Virus record (IMG/VR): IMGVR_UViG_3300033141_001977
Source: an uncultured virus (IMG/VR IMGVR_UViG_3300033141_001977)
Taxonomy: Duplodnaviria > Heunggongvirae > Uroviricota > Caudoviricetes
Length of the DNA stretch: 20,000 bases
Reading direction: 5' to 3' (one strand)
Shown here: positions 2,472 through 12,977 of the stretch, piece by piece
Layout: each line of letters opens with the position of its first letter
How positions within the stretch are numbered: position 1 is the stretch's first letter
The notes under the pieces: generated by a model
What the model was told of the DNA's origin: nothing
Database searches by the model: none
Seen by the model: only the letters and a program-made list of their open reading frames with translations
Translations under genes and position numbers: made by a program

Positions 2472-2677
2472 TATGTTACCTCCCCGAACTTGGCGAGGGC
2501 GGGCTTTGCCTCGGCGGTGTTGTCAACTTCATCTGCTGGTGGCTCGGAGGCGAGAGCCCGAGAGATGTCATCTTTAAGTGATATATCCCACTCGTCTCCG
2601 GTTGTCGATAGAATGTAATAGTCATTGACAAGGCTCATAGCCATCTTCAGCAGTTCTCGCGTTGTTTCATTAATCAT
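2471..2677 (-). CDS. Hypothetical protein, paralog of 2674-3147 and 3144-3389
   Basis: MINETTRELLK...DISRAL...ALAKF. SD GGAGG. Confidence 0.75.
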   Translation of the reverse strand: MINETTRELLKMAMSLVNDYYILSTTGDEWDISLKDDISRALASEPPADEVDNTAEAKPALAKFGEVT

Positions 2678-3147
2678 TTGTCATCCTCCTTGAACTTGGC
2701 GATGGCGGCCTCTGCGTTGGCGACCATTTTGTTAATTTCAGACATTGGCCTGATACCAGAACATGCCCAGATTAGACCTTCTGTCGCATCCACCAGCTCT
2801 TCTATATCCGCCGCCGGGTCAGCGAGTCCGGCGCAGGCGTTGGTGCAGTTGATGGCGCGGGCGAGATCTGAAACACTGATAACTCGCCAATTACTCTCTT
2901 CGTATTCGTCTGAATGTGCAGTCTCGGAGCCACATTTGGTGAAATCATTGTCATTCCACGGCTCGTTGAACTTGCCCTTACTCATGGCTGGCCTCCTGTG
3001 TGGGGTGGCGTCGAGTGCGTTACTGATGTCAACTCGTAGCTCGTTGGCGTCAGTATGAAATGCGGCTGTCCCAACATGACCGTCTCGGAATTGTATGAGT
3101 AGAGATTTGATTCGCTTTAGTAGCTCGCGTGTCTTCTCGTCAATCAT
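2674..3147 (-). CDS. Hypothetical mosaic protein (MIDEKTRELL module plus EPW...NACAGL...AAIAKF module)
   Basis: Shares its N-terminus with the flanking genes and the NACAGLADPAADI block with 1670-2065. Confidence 0.8.
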   Translation of the reverse strand: MIDEKTRELLKRIKSLLIQFRDGHVGTAAFHTDANELRVDISNALDATPHRRPAMSKGKFNEPWNDNDFTKCGSETAHSDEYEESNWRVISVSDLARAINCTNACAGLADPAADIEELVDATEGLIWACSGIRPMSEINKMVANAEAAIAKFKEDDK

Positions 3148-3389
3148 TTGTCATCCTCCTCGAGCTTGGCGAGGGCGGCTCTCATCGCATAATCTACTAT
3201 AAGATTCGCCGCCTCTATTAACTGCTTCACATCCGCCGCCGGGGCAGCAAGGTTGTTAAGGCGCTGGGCAATGTCGTTATATAGGCGGTTGGCGGTAGTT
3301 GAGTTGCTATGTCCGATCGCAATGTCGCCAATATCATCTATAAACTGCATTGTCCTCGTCAGTAGGTCTTGTGTCTTCTCGTCAATCAT
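3144..3389 (-). CDS. Hypothetical protein, paralog (MIDEKTQDLL...PAADV...AALAKLEEDDK)
   Basis: Shared termini with neighbours. SD AAGGAG. Confidence 0.75.
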   Translation of the reverse strand: MIDEKTQDLLTRTMQFIDDIGDIAIGHSNSTTANRLYNDIAQRLNNLAAPAADVKQLIEAANLIVDYAMRAALAKLEEDDK

Positions 3390-3585
3390 TCTTCGGCTCC
3401 TTTGGTGGTGTTGTGATTGGGTTGAATCTCACGCCATACCATTTCTCGCGGGCTATGGTCGCGGCATTAAAGGCCGCAAGACAGCTGATCATGAACTCTG
3501 CCAGAATGTAGTCCGGTGTGTTGGATTCGTTTTCAGTTGATTCGTAGTTGAGAAGAGTTGAAAGTTTGCGTTGTAAATCACTCAT
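3382..3585 (-). CDS. Conserved-looking phage hypothetical protein (ENESNTPDYILAEF motif)
   Basis: SD AAAGGA. Overlaps the next gene. The motif resembles small phage proteins as recalled, not searched. Confidence 0.7.
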   Translation of the reverse strand: MSDLQRKLSTLLNYESTENESNTPDYILAEFMISCLAAFNAATIAREKWYGVRFNPITTPPKEPKND

Positions 3586-3742
3586 CTTGATTATCCTTTT
3601 CTTTATTGGGTCCTCTAAATAGGTTCCCGGATTGTTCGTTCTGTTGTCGTTGTTCTTGTTGATGCTGTGCCTTGTATAGCCGCTTCGCCCGTTTTAGCAG
3701 CGCTTTCTGCTTTGCACATGGTGATTGGGGTTATGTGGCGCA

Positions 3743-9310: not shown

Positions 9311-10222
9311 TTATCCCTCCTGTTGATGCAGCCAAGTAGTTGGCGGCGGGTTGATCATCCTCTCTCTATATTTCTTTATGACGGCAACAGCCGGTGGTGG
9401 TAGTCTAGGGATCGCCAGCGCCCGCTCTCGCACCTCATCTTCTAAGACTGGTTCAAAGCGCTCATCCTCATCAATGTTGACCAGCCGGTTCCGAAACCAT
9501 TCTTGGGCATAGAGCCTATCCCAGTCGTAAGGTGTGCTTTCCTTAAACCGGCCTAACGGCAACGATTGAATGTTCCATGTGAGCCGGCGGCCTAGCTTCA
9601 CAACCGACAGGACACGAGCATATTCGGGGTCGAAAATGTTACGTTTAGGGTTGATATGGTCAAGCACCTCACCGTAACTGTTCTGGCACATATACCCGTC
9701 TAGCACATCGTTCTCAAACGAGCGGGCGGAGTTTGCTGTGAACAGCTGTGGGATGAGCTGATAATCGGACGGCAGATGGCGGTCGTGCTGGATACCGCGC
9801 ACCATGTCATGAGAGCTGATTAGACAGACGTTGAACATCACTGCGCCGCGTGCCGTGATATACTGCCTGTTCAACGCAGCCTGAAGCTGACGTCGGTCTG
9901 CCCGTTCCTCTAAAGTAGCCCGGCCAGCCTGCATATCTACGGTGAGCTGGTTTAACAATTGAAGGGCCGGTTCATATTCGTCGCAATAACAGGGGCCTAC
10001 TTTATGCTTCTTAGGGCAGGCAAACAGCCATGTCCGCATCTGCTTATCGACAAGCCGGTGGAGGTAGGCCACTCTATATCCGATGGAGCCAACGTCGGGT
10101 CTATATGCCCAATGGACGGGCAACAGCCGGTAGCTGAAGCCTTGTATTATCCTAATCTTCCGGGGCACGCCGGCTGTGATCAACTTGGGGTCAACGACCG
10201 GTAGCTGTGCGGGCTTATTCAT
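9311..10222 (-). CDS. Divergent T4 gp32-like ssDNA-binding protein (tentative)
   Basis: YRLLP...H...CP...GPCYC...FNVCLI...NIFDPEYARVLSVVK parallels gp32 IRFLP...H...C...CPVC...ANILVV...CPWEGANFVLKVK. No acidic tail. Confidence 0.5.
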   Translation of the reverse strand: MNKPAQLPVVDPKLITAGVPRKIRIIQGFSYRLLPVHWAYRPDVGSIGYRVAYLHRLVDKQMRTWLFACPKKHKVGPCYCDEYEPALQLLNQLTVDMQAGRATLEERADRRQLQAALNRQYITARGAVMFNVCLISSHDMVRGIQHDRHLPSDYQLIPQLFTANSARSFENDVLDGYMCQNSYGEVLDHINPKRNIFDPEYARVLSVVKLGRRLTWNIQSLPLGRFKESTPYDWDRLYAQEWFRNRLVNIDEDERFEPVLEDEVRERALAIPRLPPPAVAVIKKYRERMINPPPTTWLHQQEG

Positions 10223-10781
10223 ATATCCTCACCGCTGCCAGCGCATGTAAGGCAAGACCGGTCGCGTCGGAATACCCGCTCTTGGTATAGCTATACCGCT
10301 GCTGGAACTCTGGGCACGTCGGAAACCGCGCTCTGACGGTAGCCCAGACGTCGGGCTTCACGTCCGTCGATTTGCGCTTCATGTTGCGTAGCTTCTCGTT
10401 CTTGTCTTTACGCTGAGACCAGTTGGCAACGCCGATTGAAGAGCGCCATACCTCTGGTTTGACCACCAAGTGTGGGATGTCGAGATATGTGAGCGCTGCC
10501 CACCACAGTAACCAGCTGGCAGTCTGGGTGCGCATCGTCTTAGGGCTGCCGATTATCCCGGCGATTGGTGGTTCCTCAAGCGCGACCATATCAATCGGCT
10601 CCCGAGATCCGAGCAGCTGTAAGAGTTTAACCATACCTTTGAAGTCGAACTTAAATGGCCCGGCTGCCCTCGTCAGCGGAATGTCCTCAAACCGAAGACA
10701 ATGGTTGTTGTTCCTGTATTCAAGGACGGCTATGCGCCCGTCCTTACTACCTGGGTCAATGCCTACTACGAGCATGGTCAT
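10215..10781 (-). CDS. RuvC-like Holliday junction resolvase
   Basis: Start reassigned to 10781 (SD AAGGAG). VVGIDPG, VALEE, VKPEVWR, SDATGLA. Confidence 0.85.
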   Translation of the reverse strand: MTMLVVGIDPGSKDGRIAVLEYRNNNHCLRFEDIPLTRAAGPFKFDFKGMVKLLQLLGSREPIDMVALEEPPIAGIIGSPKTMRTQTASWLLWWAALTYLDIPHLVVKPEVWRSSIGVANWSQRKDKNEKLRNMKRKSTDVKPDVWATVRARFPTCPEFQQRYSYTKSGYSDATGLALHALAAVRIYE

Positions 10782-10799
10782 CTCCTTCCAACTAGTATT

Positions 10800-10930
10800 T
10801 AGCGGGAGTGCCGGGACTTGAACCCGGCTGCGGAGGTGATGGTTATGACTCTTGTACACGTGCTATAAGCATCATATCGTCCATCAAGTCTCTCCAACTG
10901 ACTGACTACCAGCGCTCCGTCTATACTCCC
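10800..10930 (-). ncRNA. tRNA-like RNA (Ser/GGA-like) with an irregular anticodon arm and a ~55-nt variable arm
   Basis: Acceptor GGGAGTA/CACTCCC; T8A9; D-stem GAC/GTC with CTGGTA in the loop; perfect T-arm CCGGG-TTCAAGT-CCCGG; discriminator G followed by CTA. Confidence 0.65.
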
Positions 10931-11078
10931 GCTCATTTTGTCGCATTTGCCGTAATCGTGAATTGATACGTGCCCAACAATCCTCGCAAACGAAATGACC
11001 CCAGAGGATTACACCACGCCTACTTTGACACCATTCGCCAAGCGAGCATGACTCTGGGCTGTTACTTACTATCTTCAT
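10884..11078 (-). CDS. Small Cys-rich hypothetical protein; its 3' end overlaps the tRNA-like element
   Basis: SD AAGGGA. C...C...CEDC. Confidence 0.55.
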   Translation of the reverse strand: MKIVSNSPESCSLGEWCQSRRGVILWGHFVCEDCWARINSRLRQMRQNEREYRRSAGSQSVGET

Positions 11079-11101
11079 GTTGTTAGTCCCTTCGTCTTCT
11101 C

Positions 11102-11338
11102 CTACTCTTTGCTTATACGGCCATATTTAACAAGTAGTCTGATACAGGCCTTACATGTGATTGGTTTCTTAACTCGTGTGAATCGCTGAGGCCGTCCACA
11201 TAATGTTTCATAATCGCCATCACAGTATGACTTAACGTGAACTTTGCCATGCGGCAATCGCTGTGCTCCGTAAGCCTTCCATTGAGGATTAATCTGCGAA
11301 ATCTCTATGCTGGTCGGCATATCTTTTTTCTGGGTCAT
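11102..11338 (-). CDS. Small zinc-binding phage protein (H...LCG...ITCKAC)
   Basis: SD AGGAG. VH...TLCG...ITCKAC pattern. Confidence 0.75.
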   Translation of the reverse strand: MTQKKDMPTSIEISQINPQWKAYGAQRLPHGKVHVKSYCDGDYETLCGRPQRFTRVKKPITCKACIRLLVKYGRISKE

Positions 11339-11358
11339 CGTCTTCTCCTATTCTTTAC

Positions 11359-11424
11359 GAGGGGCAAGGCACACCGGCGGCGTAGAGATGTGTTATTCGC
11401 CAGTGGCACACAGCCTTGCCCCTC
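11359..11424 (-). other. Long intergenic stem-loop
   Basis: Perfect 12-bp inverted repeat GAGGGGCAAGGC (11359-11370) / GCCTTGCCCCTC (11413-11424), with inner GGCG/CGCC. No U-tract. Confidence 0.65.
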
Positions 11425-11584
11425 ATCGTTTGCTGCCAATCCCAAGCTCTCGACGCTTGAACTGCAGGAGCTGTGTGGCGTACTTGATTTGGGTCTTATC
11501 ATCGTCTCTATAAACTGCGGCTAAGCATTTCTTGTGTGCCCGGCGCACACGCCATGTATAGTATCTACGTATCAGTGGGTTCAT
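11423..11584 (-). CDS. Small basic hypothetical protein, 53 aa (MNPLIRRYYTWRVRRAHKK...)
   Basis: Translated by hand. SD GAGGA directly after the dnaB stop. Confidence 0.65.
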   Translation of the reverse strand: MNPLIRRYYTWRVRRAHKKCLAAVYRDDDKTQIKYATQLLQFKRRELGIGSKR

Positions 11585-11594
11585 AATTTTGTCC

Positions 11595-12977
11595 TCATTT
11601 TACCCAGTCTGGCACATCTACTTCGTCCTCTACTTCGTCATCTACTTCGTCATCATCGCTTTTCGGCACAGCGTCCTTAAACGTGGCGCTCGACCCGTTA
11701 AATATCAGGTCGAAGGTGCCTAGCGGGCCGTTCTTATGTTTAGCCACAGTCCCTTTAATCCTTATGTTACGATGAAGGTGTGTCCGCTTTTGTGGGTTGT
11801 GTAAGAATATCACCTTATCAGCGGCTTGTTCAATTTCCCCGGATTCACGGAGGTCCGACAAACCAGGAGTCTTGAGGCTAATCCCTTTCTCTGACCGTCT
11901 CAACTGGGACAGCGCTATGACAGTAATGTCTAACTCGCTCGCTATCTCTTTGAGTCGGCGGGCGATCTCAGCAACGTCCTGCTGTCTATTCTCAGCCGTC
12001 TTCTTAGGGGCCTTAATCAACTGGAGGTAGTCAACAATGAGCACGCTGATATTATGCCGCTGCTTGATTACCTTAGCCCGCGAGAAGAGCTGTTGTATCC
12101 GCAAGGAAGCTGGTGAACCGATGTAGATCGGGAGTGCTTCAAGACTTTCCTTTATGCGATGCACAGCAGCCCTACGGTCTTCATTGAGTAGCCCGCGATG
12201 TAGGTTATGGAGTGATACACCTGCCTTCGCTGCTATGAGCCTATGCGTGATTGCAGACTTGGACATCTCTAACGAGAAGTCGAGGACACCATATCCGGCA
12301 GTTGCGACATGGCGGGCAATATCCAGCGAGATGGTCGTCTTGCCGACTGATGTTCGCGCCCCTATGATCACTAATTCGCCGGCGTGTAGCCCGCCTATTA
12401 TCTTATCCAGCTCGTTGAAGCCCGTCGGTACACCGGGCACTATCTGGTCACCAGCTGCTATCGCGTCCATCTCGGCCACGCTACTCTGCACCAAATCACG
12501 TAGATCGCTGATAGTACTCTTGGCTGATACGTCGATAAGGTCAGAAACGCACCGCTGCGCATACTCTACCTGCCCGTCGGCTTCGCCAGCCTCGTCATAA
12601 CACCGGTCCATGACTCGGCTGCACACAGAAATTAGCCGCCGAAGTAGATACTTGTCCTTGACAATACCGGCGTAGTGTGTGATGTTCGTTATGGCCGAAA
12701 CCTCTGTGAGTAATTTGGAGATATAGGCCATCCCCCCAACCTTGTCGACGTGTTTGCGCTTTTTGAGCTCATCCCCCAATAGAATGAAATCGACCGGGAT
12801 GTTTTGCTCGTGAAGCGCTATCACTGCCCTGTAAATCAATCGATGTGCAGAAAAATCAAATGCCTCAGGCGGCAAGATACTTGCAACCGTATCGATATAG
12901 GTGTTGTCGATAAGCAGACCACCTAAGACTATCCGCTCGGCCTCGCGGTTATGAGGTGGGACGTTAATGGTCATCAA
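11595..12977 (-). CDS. dnaB: Replicative DNA helicase DnaB
   Basis: PPHNREAE N-terminus, Walker A GARTSVGKT, FSLEMS, IVDYLQL, ALSQLRR, DLRESGEIEQAAD, AKHKNGP. Confidence 0.97.
   Translation of the reverse strand: MMTINVPPHNREAERIVLGGLLIDNTYIDTVASILPPEAFDFSAHRLIYRAVIALHEQNIPVDFILLGDELKKRKHVDKVGGMAYISKLLTEVSAITNITHYAGIVKDKYLLRRLISVCSRVMDRCYDEAGEADGQVEYAQRCVSDLIDVSAKSTISDLRDLVQSSVAEMDAIAAGDQIVPGVPTGFNELDKIIGGLHAGELVIIGARTSVGKTTISLDIARHVATAGYGVLDFSLEMSKSAITHRLIAAKAGVSLHNLHRGLLNEDRRAAVHRIKESLEALPIYIGSPASLRIQQLFSRAKVIKQRHNISVLIVDYLQLIKAPKKTAENRQQDVAEIARRLKEIASELDITVIALSQLRRSEKGISLKTPGLSDLRESGEIEQAADKVIFLHNPQKRTHLHRNIRIKGTVAKHKNGPLGTFDLIFNGSSATFKDAVPKSDDDEVDDEVEDEVDVPDWVK
11615..11650. repeat. 3 x 12-bp tandem repeat encoding the acidic DnaB tail
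   Basis: catctacttcgt cctctacttcgt catctacttcgt (DEVD/DEVE/DEVD). Confidence 0.85.

Follow-up and report, generated by a model that had tools for sequence, protein, structure and literature searches.

A tRNA look-alike element inside the replication operon of an uncultured phage: probable descent from a class-II tRNA gene and a tentative role in mRNA processing

RNA C and RNA D of phage T4 are about 120–140 nucleotides (nt) long, with ends and a shape that resemble those of transfer RNA (tRNA). Both are placed among the small RNAs of the T4 tRNA region, with roles that are still unknown, in two reports (PMC3014915, PMC9697503). In plant mitochondria, t-elements carrying the motif GGTTCRANYCC direct cuts by RNase P and RNase Z, also inside reading frames, as described for ccmC (-46) and nad6 (-17) (PMC1920247). 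YrlA of M. smegmatis is cut by RNase P and receives CCA (PMC4201824). Here, an element that can be set beside these RNAs is described from a 20,000-nt stretch of an uncultured member of the Caudoviricetes (IMG/VR record IMGVR_UViG_3300033141_001977), this whole stretch being referred to below as the window. The tRNA look-alike element, at positions 10800–10933 on the minus strand, is very probably a tRNA-derived, non-decoding RNA domain that stems from a class-II (Ser/Leu-type) tRNA gene and lies inside a minus-strand replication/recombination operon.

Direct reading of the minus strand confirmed the letters and coordinates that an earlier note on this DNA had given for the element, and textbook tRNA numbering and invariants are applied to it throughout. 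It forms one stretch of 127–134 nt between two replication-operon genes. The acceptor 5' strand, GGGAGUA (positions 1–7; 10924–10930), is paired at six of its seven positions with residues 10804–10809 of the acceptor 3' strand CACUCCC (10804–10810), leaving an A7·C66 mismatch, while a 5' extension AGC (10931–10933) pairs with the GCU formed by G73 and the following C and U (10803–10801) and lengthens the acceptor helix by 3 base pairs (bp). Next come U8, A9 and a D-arm-like segment (10904–10923), in which the arm proper (10921–10904) has a 3-bp stem of GAC and GUC around the 12-nt loop GGAGCGCUGGUA with its GG and terminal A. The D-arm letters U8, G10, A14, G18 G19 and A21 are all found in the element, the A14-like A being shifted by one extra G. 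The T arm, CCGGG-UUCAAGU-CCCGG (10811–10827), is a perfect consensus, with a 5-bp stem, the loop residues T54 T55 C56 R57 A58 and the pair G53–C61. It is preceded by G10828, whose possible pairing with C10810 would extend the T stem to 6 bp, and it joins the 3' acceptor strand (6/7 Watson–Crick pairs) without a spacer, as in canonical tRNAs. The discriminator G73 (10803) is followed by CUA, one transition from CCA. The earlier description of intact elbow elements (the D-loop GG and the T-loop TTCAA), of an acceptor stem longer by 3 bp and of CTA in place of CCA thus agrees with the sequence.

The remaining 75 nt (10829–10903) stand in place of the anticodon arm and the variable region. This interior holds a Ser-like loop, UUGGAGA, the stop codon (10886–10884) of a 64-amino-acid (aa) open reading frame (ORF64) and the segment CACCUCC, which resembles an anti-Shine–Dalgarno sequence. 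A canonical anticodon arm, with a 5-bp stem, a 7-nt loop, U33 and R37, was not found, the best local pairing leaving a loop of either 9 or 10 nt or of 5 nt; the stem that flanks UUGGAGA leaves 9–10 nt unpaired and ends in two G·U pairs. UUGGAGA resembles the anticodon loop of a tRNA-Ser(GGA), which reads CUGGAAA in the tRNA-Ser(GGA) of the 4.1-Mb assembly with which the phage contig was binned.

In its outline, the element resembles the class II tRNAs of bacteria and phages (Ser/Leu/Tyr; RF00005), having an acceptor helix followed by U8, the letters of a 3-bp D stem around a large loop that contains GG, a T arm of consensus sequence, the Ser-like G73 and, separating the anticodon region from the T arm, an extra arm. 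The D arm resembles the class-II D arms of the assembly's Ser, Leu and Tyr tRNAs, except for the one extra G before the A14-like A. Unlike class II tRNAs, the element has no canonical anticodon stem-loop and contains 75 nt where about 35–45 are usual; it also has the A7·C66 mismatch, the additional D-loop nucleotide and CUA, and it is missed by ARAGORN, by Rfam and by a class-II covariance model (R1). All 11 class-II and selenocysteine (SeC) tRNA genes inspected in the assembly, out of 46 ARAGORN genes, end in CCA.

How often such a frame would arise by chance was estimated with a generic scan, which required a TTCRANN loop in the T arm, at least 6/7 Watson–Crick pairs between the 7 nt that follow this arm and a segment 60–260 nt upstream, U8, and a D stem of 3–4 bp with a GG-containing loop. 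The scan was written after the element had been seen, and its criteria are textbook tRNA features. On both strands of the 4.1-Mb assembly it yielded five matches, namely three tRNA-Ser genes, one alternative frame on a tRNA-Leu gene and the element itself, while 96 Mb of third-order Markov sequence gave eight, a null rate of 0.0033 per 40 kb (one window, both strands). A strict version, which the element passes in full, adds an all-Watson–Crick T stem with G53–C61, G10, A21 and an A near the start of the D loop. It multiplies the rate by 0.043 and by 0.049, down to 7e-6 per window, which corresponds to 1.8e-10 per nt or about 1.8 per 250,000 windows. The frame exceeds what chance would supply, and descent of the element from a tRNA, judged from its letters, appears well supported and highly probable.

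A chance resemblance, in which a structured RNA between cistrons, or an inverted repeat in the DNA close to the replication genes, merely looks like a tRNA frame, is improbable. It is true that the looser features are not rare: T-arm-like motifs occurred 1070 times in the 96 Mb of null sequence, so that about 1.5 are expected per phage genome, and the basic frame alone would be met about 800 times over 250,000 windows at the Markov rate. The formal models score only the 15–17-nt T arm, and the minimum free energy (MFE) structure favours a CGGAG/CUCCG rod over a cloverleaf. The strict frame, however, is expected at just 1.8e-10 per nt, the element sits on the coding strand in a non-coding gap, and CUA is one step from CCA and stands right after a G discriminator, as in the Ser tRNAs of the assembly. 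The T-arm-like motif of the element is the only one on either strand of the whole 67-kb phage.

Formal models fail to recognise the element as a tRNA. ARAGORN and Rfam cmscan, both proposed as checks in the earlier note, were run and were negative for the element, in the case of Rfam at the gathering level. ARAGORN called no tRNA or transfer-messenger RNA (tmRNA) gene in the window, also with introns allowed at the default threshold; calls at relaxed settings (-ps80, -ps70, introns to 120 nt) were set aside as noise, with dozens to 144 genes called across the window. Rfam searches at E up to 10 (551 nt and 146 nt) returned only T-arm fragments (tmRNA, permuted tmRNA and mascRNA) and two unrelated chance matches, the 17-nt T arm scoring 15.3 bits against mascRNA and 8.2 bits against tmRNA RF00023, compared to a gathering threshold of 47. 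Model R1 was built from six of the assembly's nine class-II tRNAs, Ser-gct, Ser-cga and Ser-gga being left out because MAFFT misaligned their D or anticodon strands, and was searched over the window with filters off. In the element it scored the T arm alone (9.8 bits, E 0.59). With no 5-bp stem and 7-nt loop, and with ARAGORN, Rfam and the class-II model all failing on it, the element is unable to decode in any canonical way.

That the element works as an aberrant tRNA-Ser(GGA), whose anticodon loop is expanded and whose variable arm is giant, and that it is charged by seryl-tRNA synthetase (SerRS) and used in translation, is most improbable. UUGGAGA does have U33-like and R37-like neighbours, and G73 and the long extra arm are both present, but the sole stem flanking the loop leaves 10 nt unpaired and ends in two G·U pairs, and ARAGORN remains negative even when introns are allowed. 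Moreover, the assembly has its own tRNA-Ser(GGA), and UCC makes up a smaller share of Ser codons in the phage than in the assembly (14.6% vs 31.6%). The long ORFs of the phage are intact under table 11, which speaks against any recoding that would need a special tRNA.

Among 8055 single deletions scanned, one gave an ARAGORN call, a malformed 95-nt tRNA-Pro(UGG). A tRNA carrying one insertion was ruled out on this result; since no single deletion brings back a normal tRNA, the element does not appear to be a fresh insertion into one. The earlier note had offered a choice between a non-decoding tRNA mimic, as decoy or as processing signal, and a decaying tRNA with an insertion, of which the tRNA ancestry and the absence of decoding hold, while the simple insertion falls away.

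Folding of the whole element gave an MFE of -50.9 kcal/mol (z -3.28; 1/200 shuffles), which ranks it in the bottom 2.7% among 6708 windows of 134 nt from the phage. The closed domain was identical in contexts of 221, 261 and 401 nt, in which the pair probabilities at acceptor positions 1–7 were 1.0, 1.0, 1.0, 1.0, 1.0, 0.91 and 0.0. The MFE structure retains the acceptor helix with six pairs plus the 3-pair extension, the latter paired in every context tested, and has a 6-bp T stem (G10828–C10810) with a T-arm pair probability of about 1.0, so that acceptor and T stem stack as 6+6 = 12 bp. The D-loop CGGAG is paired with the CUCCG directly before the T arm at a probability of about 0.9, leaving the D stem at 0.003. 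Thermodynamic folding often overlooks real D stems, so this low value does not disprove a D arm. Enforcing the D stem costs only 3–4 kcal/mol and turns 10896–10831 into one imperfect 66-nt hairpin (z -1.98; 8/200).

No interior sub-arm clearly beats shuffled sequence. The 28-nt 'anticodon arm' has a z of +0.23, with 113 of 200 shuffles folding equally well, and the 55-nt 'variable arm' a z of -0.48, with 60 of 200 doing so. The full structure drawn in the earlier note reaches only -26.2 kcal/mol, compared to -50.9 for the MFE, so its separate anticodon arm and single giant variable-arm hairpin were not borne out. What survives of that description is the reading of the letters and a tRNA frame beyond chance, but not the two interior arms as drawn.

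The alternative CGGAG/CTCCG helix, also pointed out earlier, proved to be the thermodynamically preferred one (about 0.9), whereas the tmRNA- or Y-RNA-like arrangement attached to it did not stand. As in tmRNA, a long helix takes the place of the anticodon arm and connects the acceptor stem and T arm of the MFE structure. The element nonetheless has G3–C70 rather than G3·U70, measures 134 nt rather than about 350 and lacks pseudoknots. The tmRNA reading was rejected on the G3–C70 pair, the negative ARAGORN tmRNA search and the RF00023 score (8.2 vs 47 bits). The assembly has a tmRNA of its own. A mini-ORF of 10 codons, MMLIARVQES, was rejected as a tmRNA-like tag; it is fully base-paired and ends in ...QES, without Ala identity.

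With the Y RNAs YrlA and Yrn1 the element has in common that they are non-decoding and combine tRNA-like D and T arms with an acceptor-like stem (PMC4201824). The Y RNAs differ in being encoded beside Ro60/Rsr and in their GNCGAAN0-1G motif, which is absent from the element (no CGAA). In the assembly, whose completeness is 94% and of which the phage contig forms part, TROVE/Ro60 (PF05731) had no match. With no TROVE gene in assembly or phage and no Rfam Y-RNA match, the Y-RNA reading was rejected. Allo-tRNAs (8/4 or 9/3) have a 12-bp acceptor branch in which the acceptor stem is longer and the T stem shorter (PMC5389517). Measured against that definition, the element falls outside the group, its branch being 7/5 or 6/6 with three extra outer pairs. 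Separately, ARAGORN found two tRNA-SeC genes in the assembly, C104:1764-1855 (92 nt) and C186:9384-9481 (98 nt), one of which may be allo-tRNA-like or mis-binned.

Searches for relatives returned the element alone. BLAST against the 50,697 phage records of INPHARED gave no relative, only T-arm-sized pieces of ordinary tRNAs, and the 5' half of the element showed no similarity to any INPHARED phage tRNA; BLAST of 61 related genomes likewise gave only matches of T-arm length. Searched with the neighbouring resolvase, IMG/VR, a collection of 5.8 billion proteins (word-based search) and 209 genomes of the host order each returned self only. The DnaB protein retrieved 12 IMG/VR loci, self and 11 others at 26–28% identity, and metagenome contigs with a best identity of 36%, and ARAGORN found no tRNA gene in the 14 non-self DnaB loci (11 from IMG/VR, three from metagenomes). 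The 303-aa and Sak4-like proteins found only the two pieces of the same assembly in IMG/VR. At the DNA level, exact and gapped patterns in IMG/VR returned self only, and a looser pattern returned 46 loci, none like the element besides self. In GTDB contigs the gapped pattern gave one chance match, beside a normal tRNA-Val.

Oversized tRNA frames of 93–133 nt, with inserts of 20–60 nt at the anticodon loop, were encountered on other IMG/VR contigs and are unrelated to the element. These frames (L048 7-139 (-), L057 516-634 (+), L058 48-148 and 430-522 (-)) look like intron-bearing tRNAs of other viruses, and the insert of the L048 frame carries a second T-arm-like hairpin.

The likeliest effect of the element, put forward tentatively, would be that of a tRNA-type processing cut site in the operon messenger RNA (mRNA). 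Since no promoter-like or terminator-like site adjoins the element on the coding strand, it would probably be co-transcribed with its neighbours and would then fold within the mRNA as an autonomous domain. RNase P could cut at 10931/10930, and an endo- or exonuclease could produce a 3' end near 10803, possibly followed by CCA addition. Such a cut would act as punctuation, separating the message of the upstream small genes from the ruvC-like message and setting free a tRNA-shaped RNA of about 127 nt. Processing ranks first because tRNA end-processing enzymes read just those parts that survive, namely the T loop, the D-loop GG and the 12-bp acceptor/T stack. The frame beyond chance, the autonomous fold, the site in a coding-strand gap, the sole T-arm motif of the phage, the 6+6-bp stack and the two PolyA_pol/CCA-type nucleotidyltransferase genes found in the assembly would also favour it.

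This arrangement invites comparison with t-elements, which likewise are non-canonical cloverleafs that keep a GGTTCRANYCC T arm, lie in mRNA between or within ORFs and in some cases are cut before a stop codon (PMC1920247). They belong to another kingdom, share no homology with the element and have ends that were mapped experimentally. The element may work like t-elements, T4 RNA C and RNA D, or YrlA while belonging to none of these groups.

Several points weigh against a processing role. No relative came up in the collections searched, so that neither conservation nor covariation points to selection, and a look-up of sequencing runs, RNA among them, returned none. The extension pairs positions -1 to -3 with 73–75, and the free RCCA that bacterial RNase P prefers is absent from the element; both a paired -1/-3 segment and a missing RCCA make for a poor substrate of this enzyme. 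The A7·C66 mismatch and the extra D-loop G are damage to just that half on which a processing signal would depend, and the D stem is thermodynamically disfavoured (0.003). A cut at +1 would strip ORF64 of its stop codon, if that ORF is real. The assembly contains no RNase Z above the family cut-off (best 100 bits vs 293), and its standing as the host is inferred from binning.

Almost as likely as a processing signal is an inert relic. In that case a class-II phage tRNA gene, probably Ser(GGA)-like, would have been wrecked by a rearrangement in its middle and by point changes and would persist as transcribed spacer without a selected function, into part of which a small ORF reads. Lesions are found in every part of the element (A7·C66, the extra D-loop G, the 10-nt loop with its G·U-ended stem, the 55-nt variable region and CUA), the interior arms fold no better than shuffles, and all detectors are negative. 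The overlap with an ORF, the singleton status without relatives and a codon usage that shows no demand for a GGA anticodon fit a relic equally. On the other side, the T loop, the elbow invariants and the 5-bp T stem are intact despite lesions elsewhere, no single deletion restores a tRNA (one odd call in 8055), and the three extra pairs look like a maintained closing helix, one of them created by C75U itself. Phage genomes usually delete useless DNA, and this too was counted against a relic.

An RNA of about 127–131 nt that acts in trans as a tRNA mimic, baiting a defence nuclease or modifier that targets tRNA, a synthetase, EF-Tu or the CCA enzyme, is unlikely. The top half and the elbow are kept while the anticodon arm is lost, and G73, the long extra arm and the UUGGAGA loop are Ser-like traits under the identity rules, which counts in favour of such a mimic. 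Precedents would be T4 RNA C and RNA D, given as small RNAs of the T4 tRNA region without an assigned role (PMC3014915, PMC9697503). The T4 pair lies in a tRNA gene cluster, whereas the phage described here has no tRNA genes, and beyond T-arm pieces the element matches none of the 50,697 INPHARED records. No promoter of its own was seen, there is no conservation, and the interior is not a defined rod; nor is there a partner gene nearby, a tRNA-enzyme PHROG match among the 95 ORFs of the phage that were scanned, or a Ro60. A more far-reaching version may be sketched at the level of a doubtful proposal, in which a processed top-half mimic of about 127–131 nt, with a 6+6-bp branch, an intact elbow and no anticodon, would be under selection, be released by the phage from its replication-operon mRNA and, in trans, bait a host factor that recognises tRNA, e.g. 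a tRNA-targeting defence enzyme. The element would then be the lone member of a wider, uncatalogued class of non-decoding class-II phage tRNA mimics.

The window corresponds to the final 20 kb of contig C290 (C290:47329-67328), which is 67,328 nt long. The first 114 nt of this contig recur at its end (repeat start 67215), and on the basis of this terminal repeat the contig is taken as a complete circular phage assembly of 67,214 bp. The copies in IMG/VR represent the same assembly split into two uncultivated viral genomes (UViGs) of 49.9 and 17.4 kb, with 0 differences over 9380 and 6558 nt. The GC content of C290 is 53.3%, compared to 52.1% in the rest of the bin. ARAGORN found 46 tRNA or tmRNA genes in the assembly, including its own tmRNA and tRNA-Ser(GGA), and none on the phage contig.

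PHROG and Pfam scans covered 95 phage ORFs, one 915-aa ORF and some short ORFs lying outside the scan. Matches included portal, protease, capsid, terminase, endolysin, several DNA methyltransferases and an HNH endonuclease, as well as a minus-strand replication/recombination block with a 330-aa protein, DnaB, small ORFs, a RuvC-like resolvase, a PD-(D/E)XK exonuclease, Sak4 and SSB. None of the scanned ORFs matched an integrase or a tRNA enzyme, and the phage is apparently non-integrating. The idea that the element serves as attP was rejected, as no integrase is among these matches and no own-genome tRNA matches the element. Five ORFs of C290 fall in DNA methyltransferase PHROGs (1643-2611, 3213-3695, 26406-27908, 45875-46672 and 46669-47259) and the HNH endonuclease lies at 2599-3213; together these genes suggest a heavy investment in anti-restriction.

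The element lies on the coding strand and fills the 108-nt gap between the stop codon of ORF64 and the start of the RuvC-like Holliday-junction resolvase. The latter (10215–10775, minus strand; phrog_1770, E 1e-8; N-terminus MLVVGIDPG) follows directly downstream, with its ATG at 10781 or 10775, that is 19–25 nt past the element, and with a Shine–Dalgarno sequence, GGAGA, at 10786–10782, 14 nt past it. The ribosome-binding site folds in a local hairpin of its own, apart from the element, and sequestration of this site by the element's CACCUCC was therefore rejected.

On the upstream side, ORF64 (10884–11078, minus strand) is a Cys-rich ORF that runs into the element, where its final 16 codons and its stop overlap the first 50 nt. 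The overlap with this ORF and the downstream resolvase start that the earlier note had described are thus both there, with the distance of about 20 nt given for the latter now measured as 19–25 nt. The coding status of ORF64 appears doubtful: its codon-usage log-likelihood ratio of -11.7 is lower than in any 64-codon window taken from the long genes of the phage, this value is reached by 37% of windows in non-coding frames, and no protein homologue was found. A 19-nt repeat, AAAGARTAGGAGAAGACGA, stands 95% identical at 11092–11110 and 11338–11356 on the minus strand, ahead of ORF64 and of a second small ORF, ORF78, and because the two share it ORF64 is not dismissed as non-coding. The ORF78 copy abuts an ATG, while the ORF64 copy has AAG at that place and an ATG 13 nt further on. 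Read-through from ORF64 into the resolvase was rejected; the two are in the same frame, but three in-frame stops lie between them.

Across the roughly 820 nt that separate DnaB from the resolvase (window 10884-11584, minus strand), codon-usage scores are weak or negative for every small ORF, with -11.7 for ORF64, +0.5 for ORF78, -18 for a 55-aa ORF and +5 for a 53-aa ORF. The ORFs may be small genes of an atypical kind; alternatively, most of the stretch may be non-coding. It also contains a strong 70-nt hairpin (11357–11426, minus strand) of 14 + 8 bp (-39 kcal/mol for a 111-nt stretch, z -2.6), just upstream of the ORF78 ribosome-binding site and without a T-run after it, which may serve in regulation or processing. 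Three tandem 12-nt units at the 3' end of the DnaB gene (window 11615-11654) encode an acidic D/E/V repeat tail.

What the element means for this phage depends on which reading is true. Should it be a mere relic, it would show that this phage, today devoid of tRNA genes, once carried one, and the element would be a useful negative example for the hunt for tRNA mimics, with a convincing outer frame around an interior no better than random. If a released RNA acts in trans, it would add to the few known non-decoding phage tRNA look-alikes, among them T4 RNA C and RNA D, which after decades still lack a known role. Processing, if real, would make the element the equivalent, in a bacterial phage, of the organellar t-element: a worn-out tRNA retained as a cut site, which defines the 5' end of the resolvase message and truncates the upstream message.

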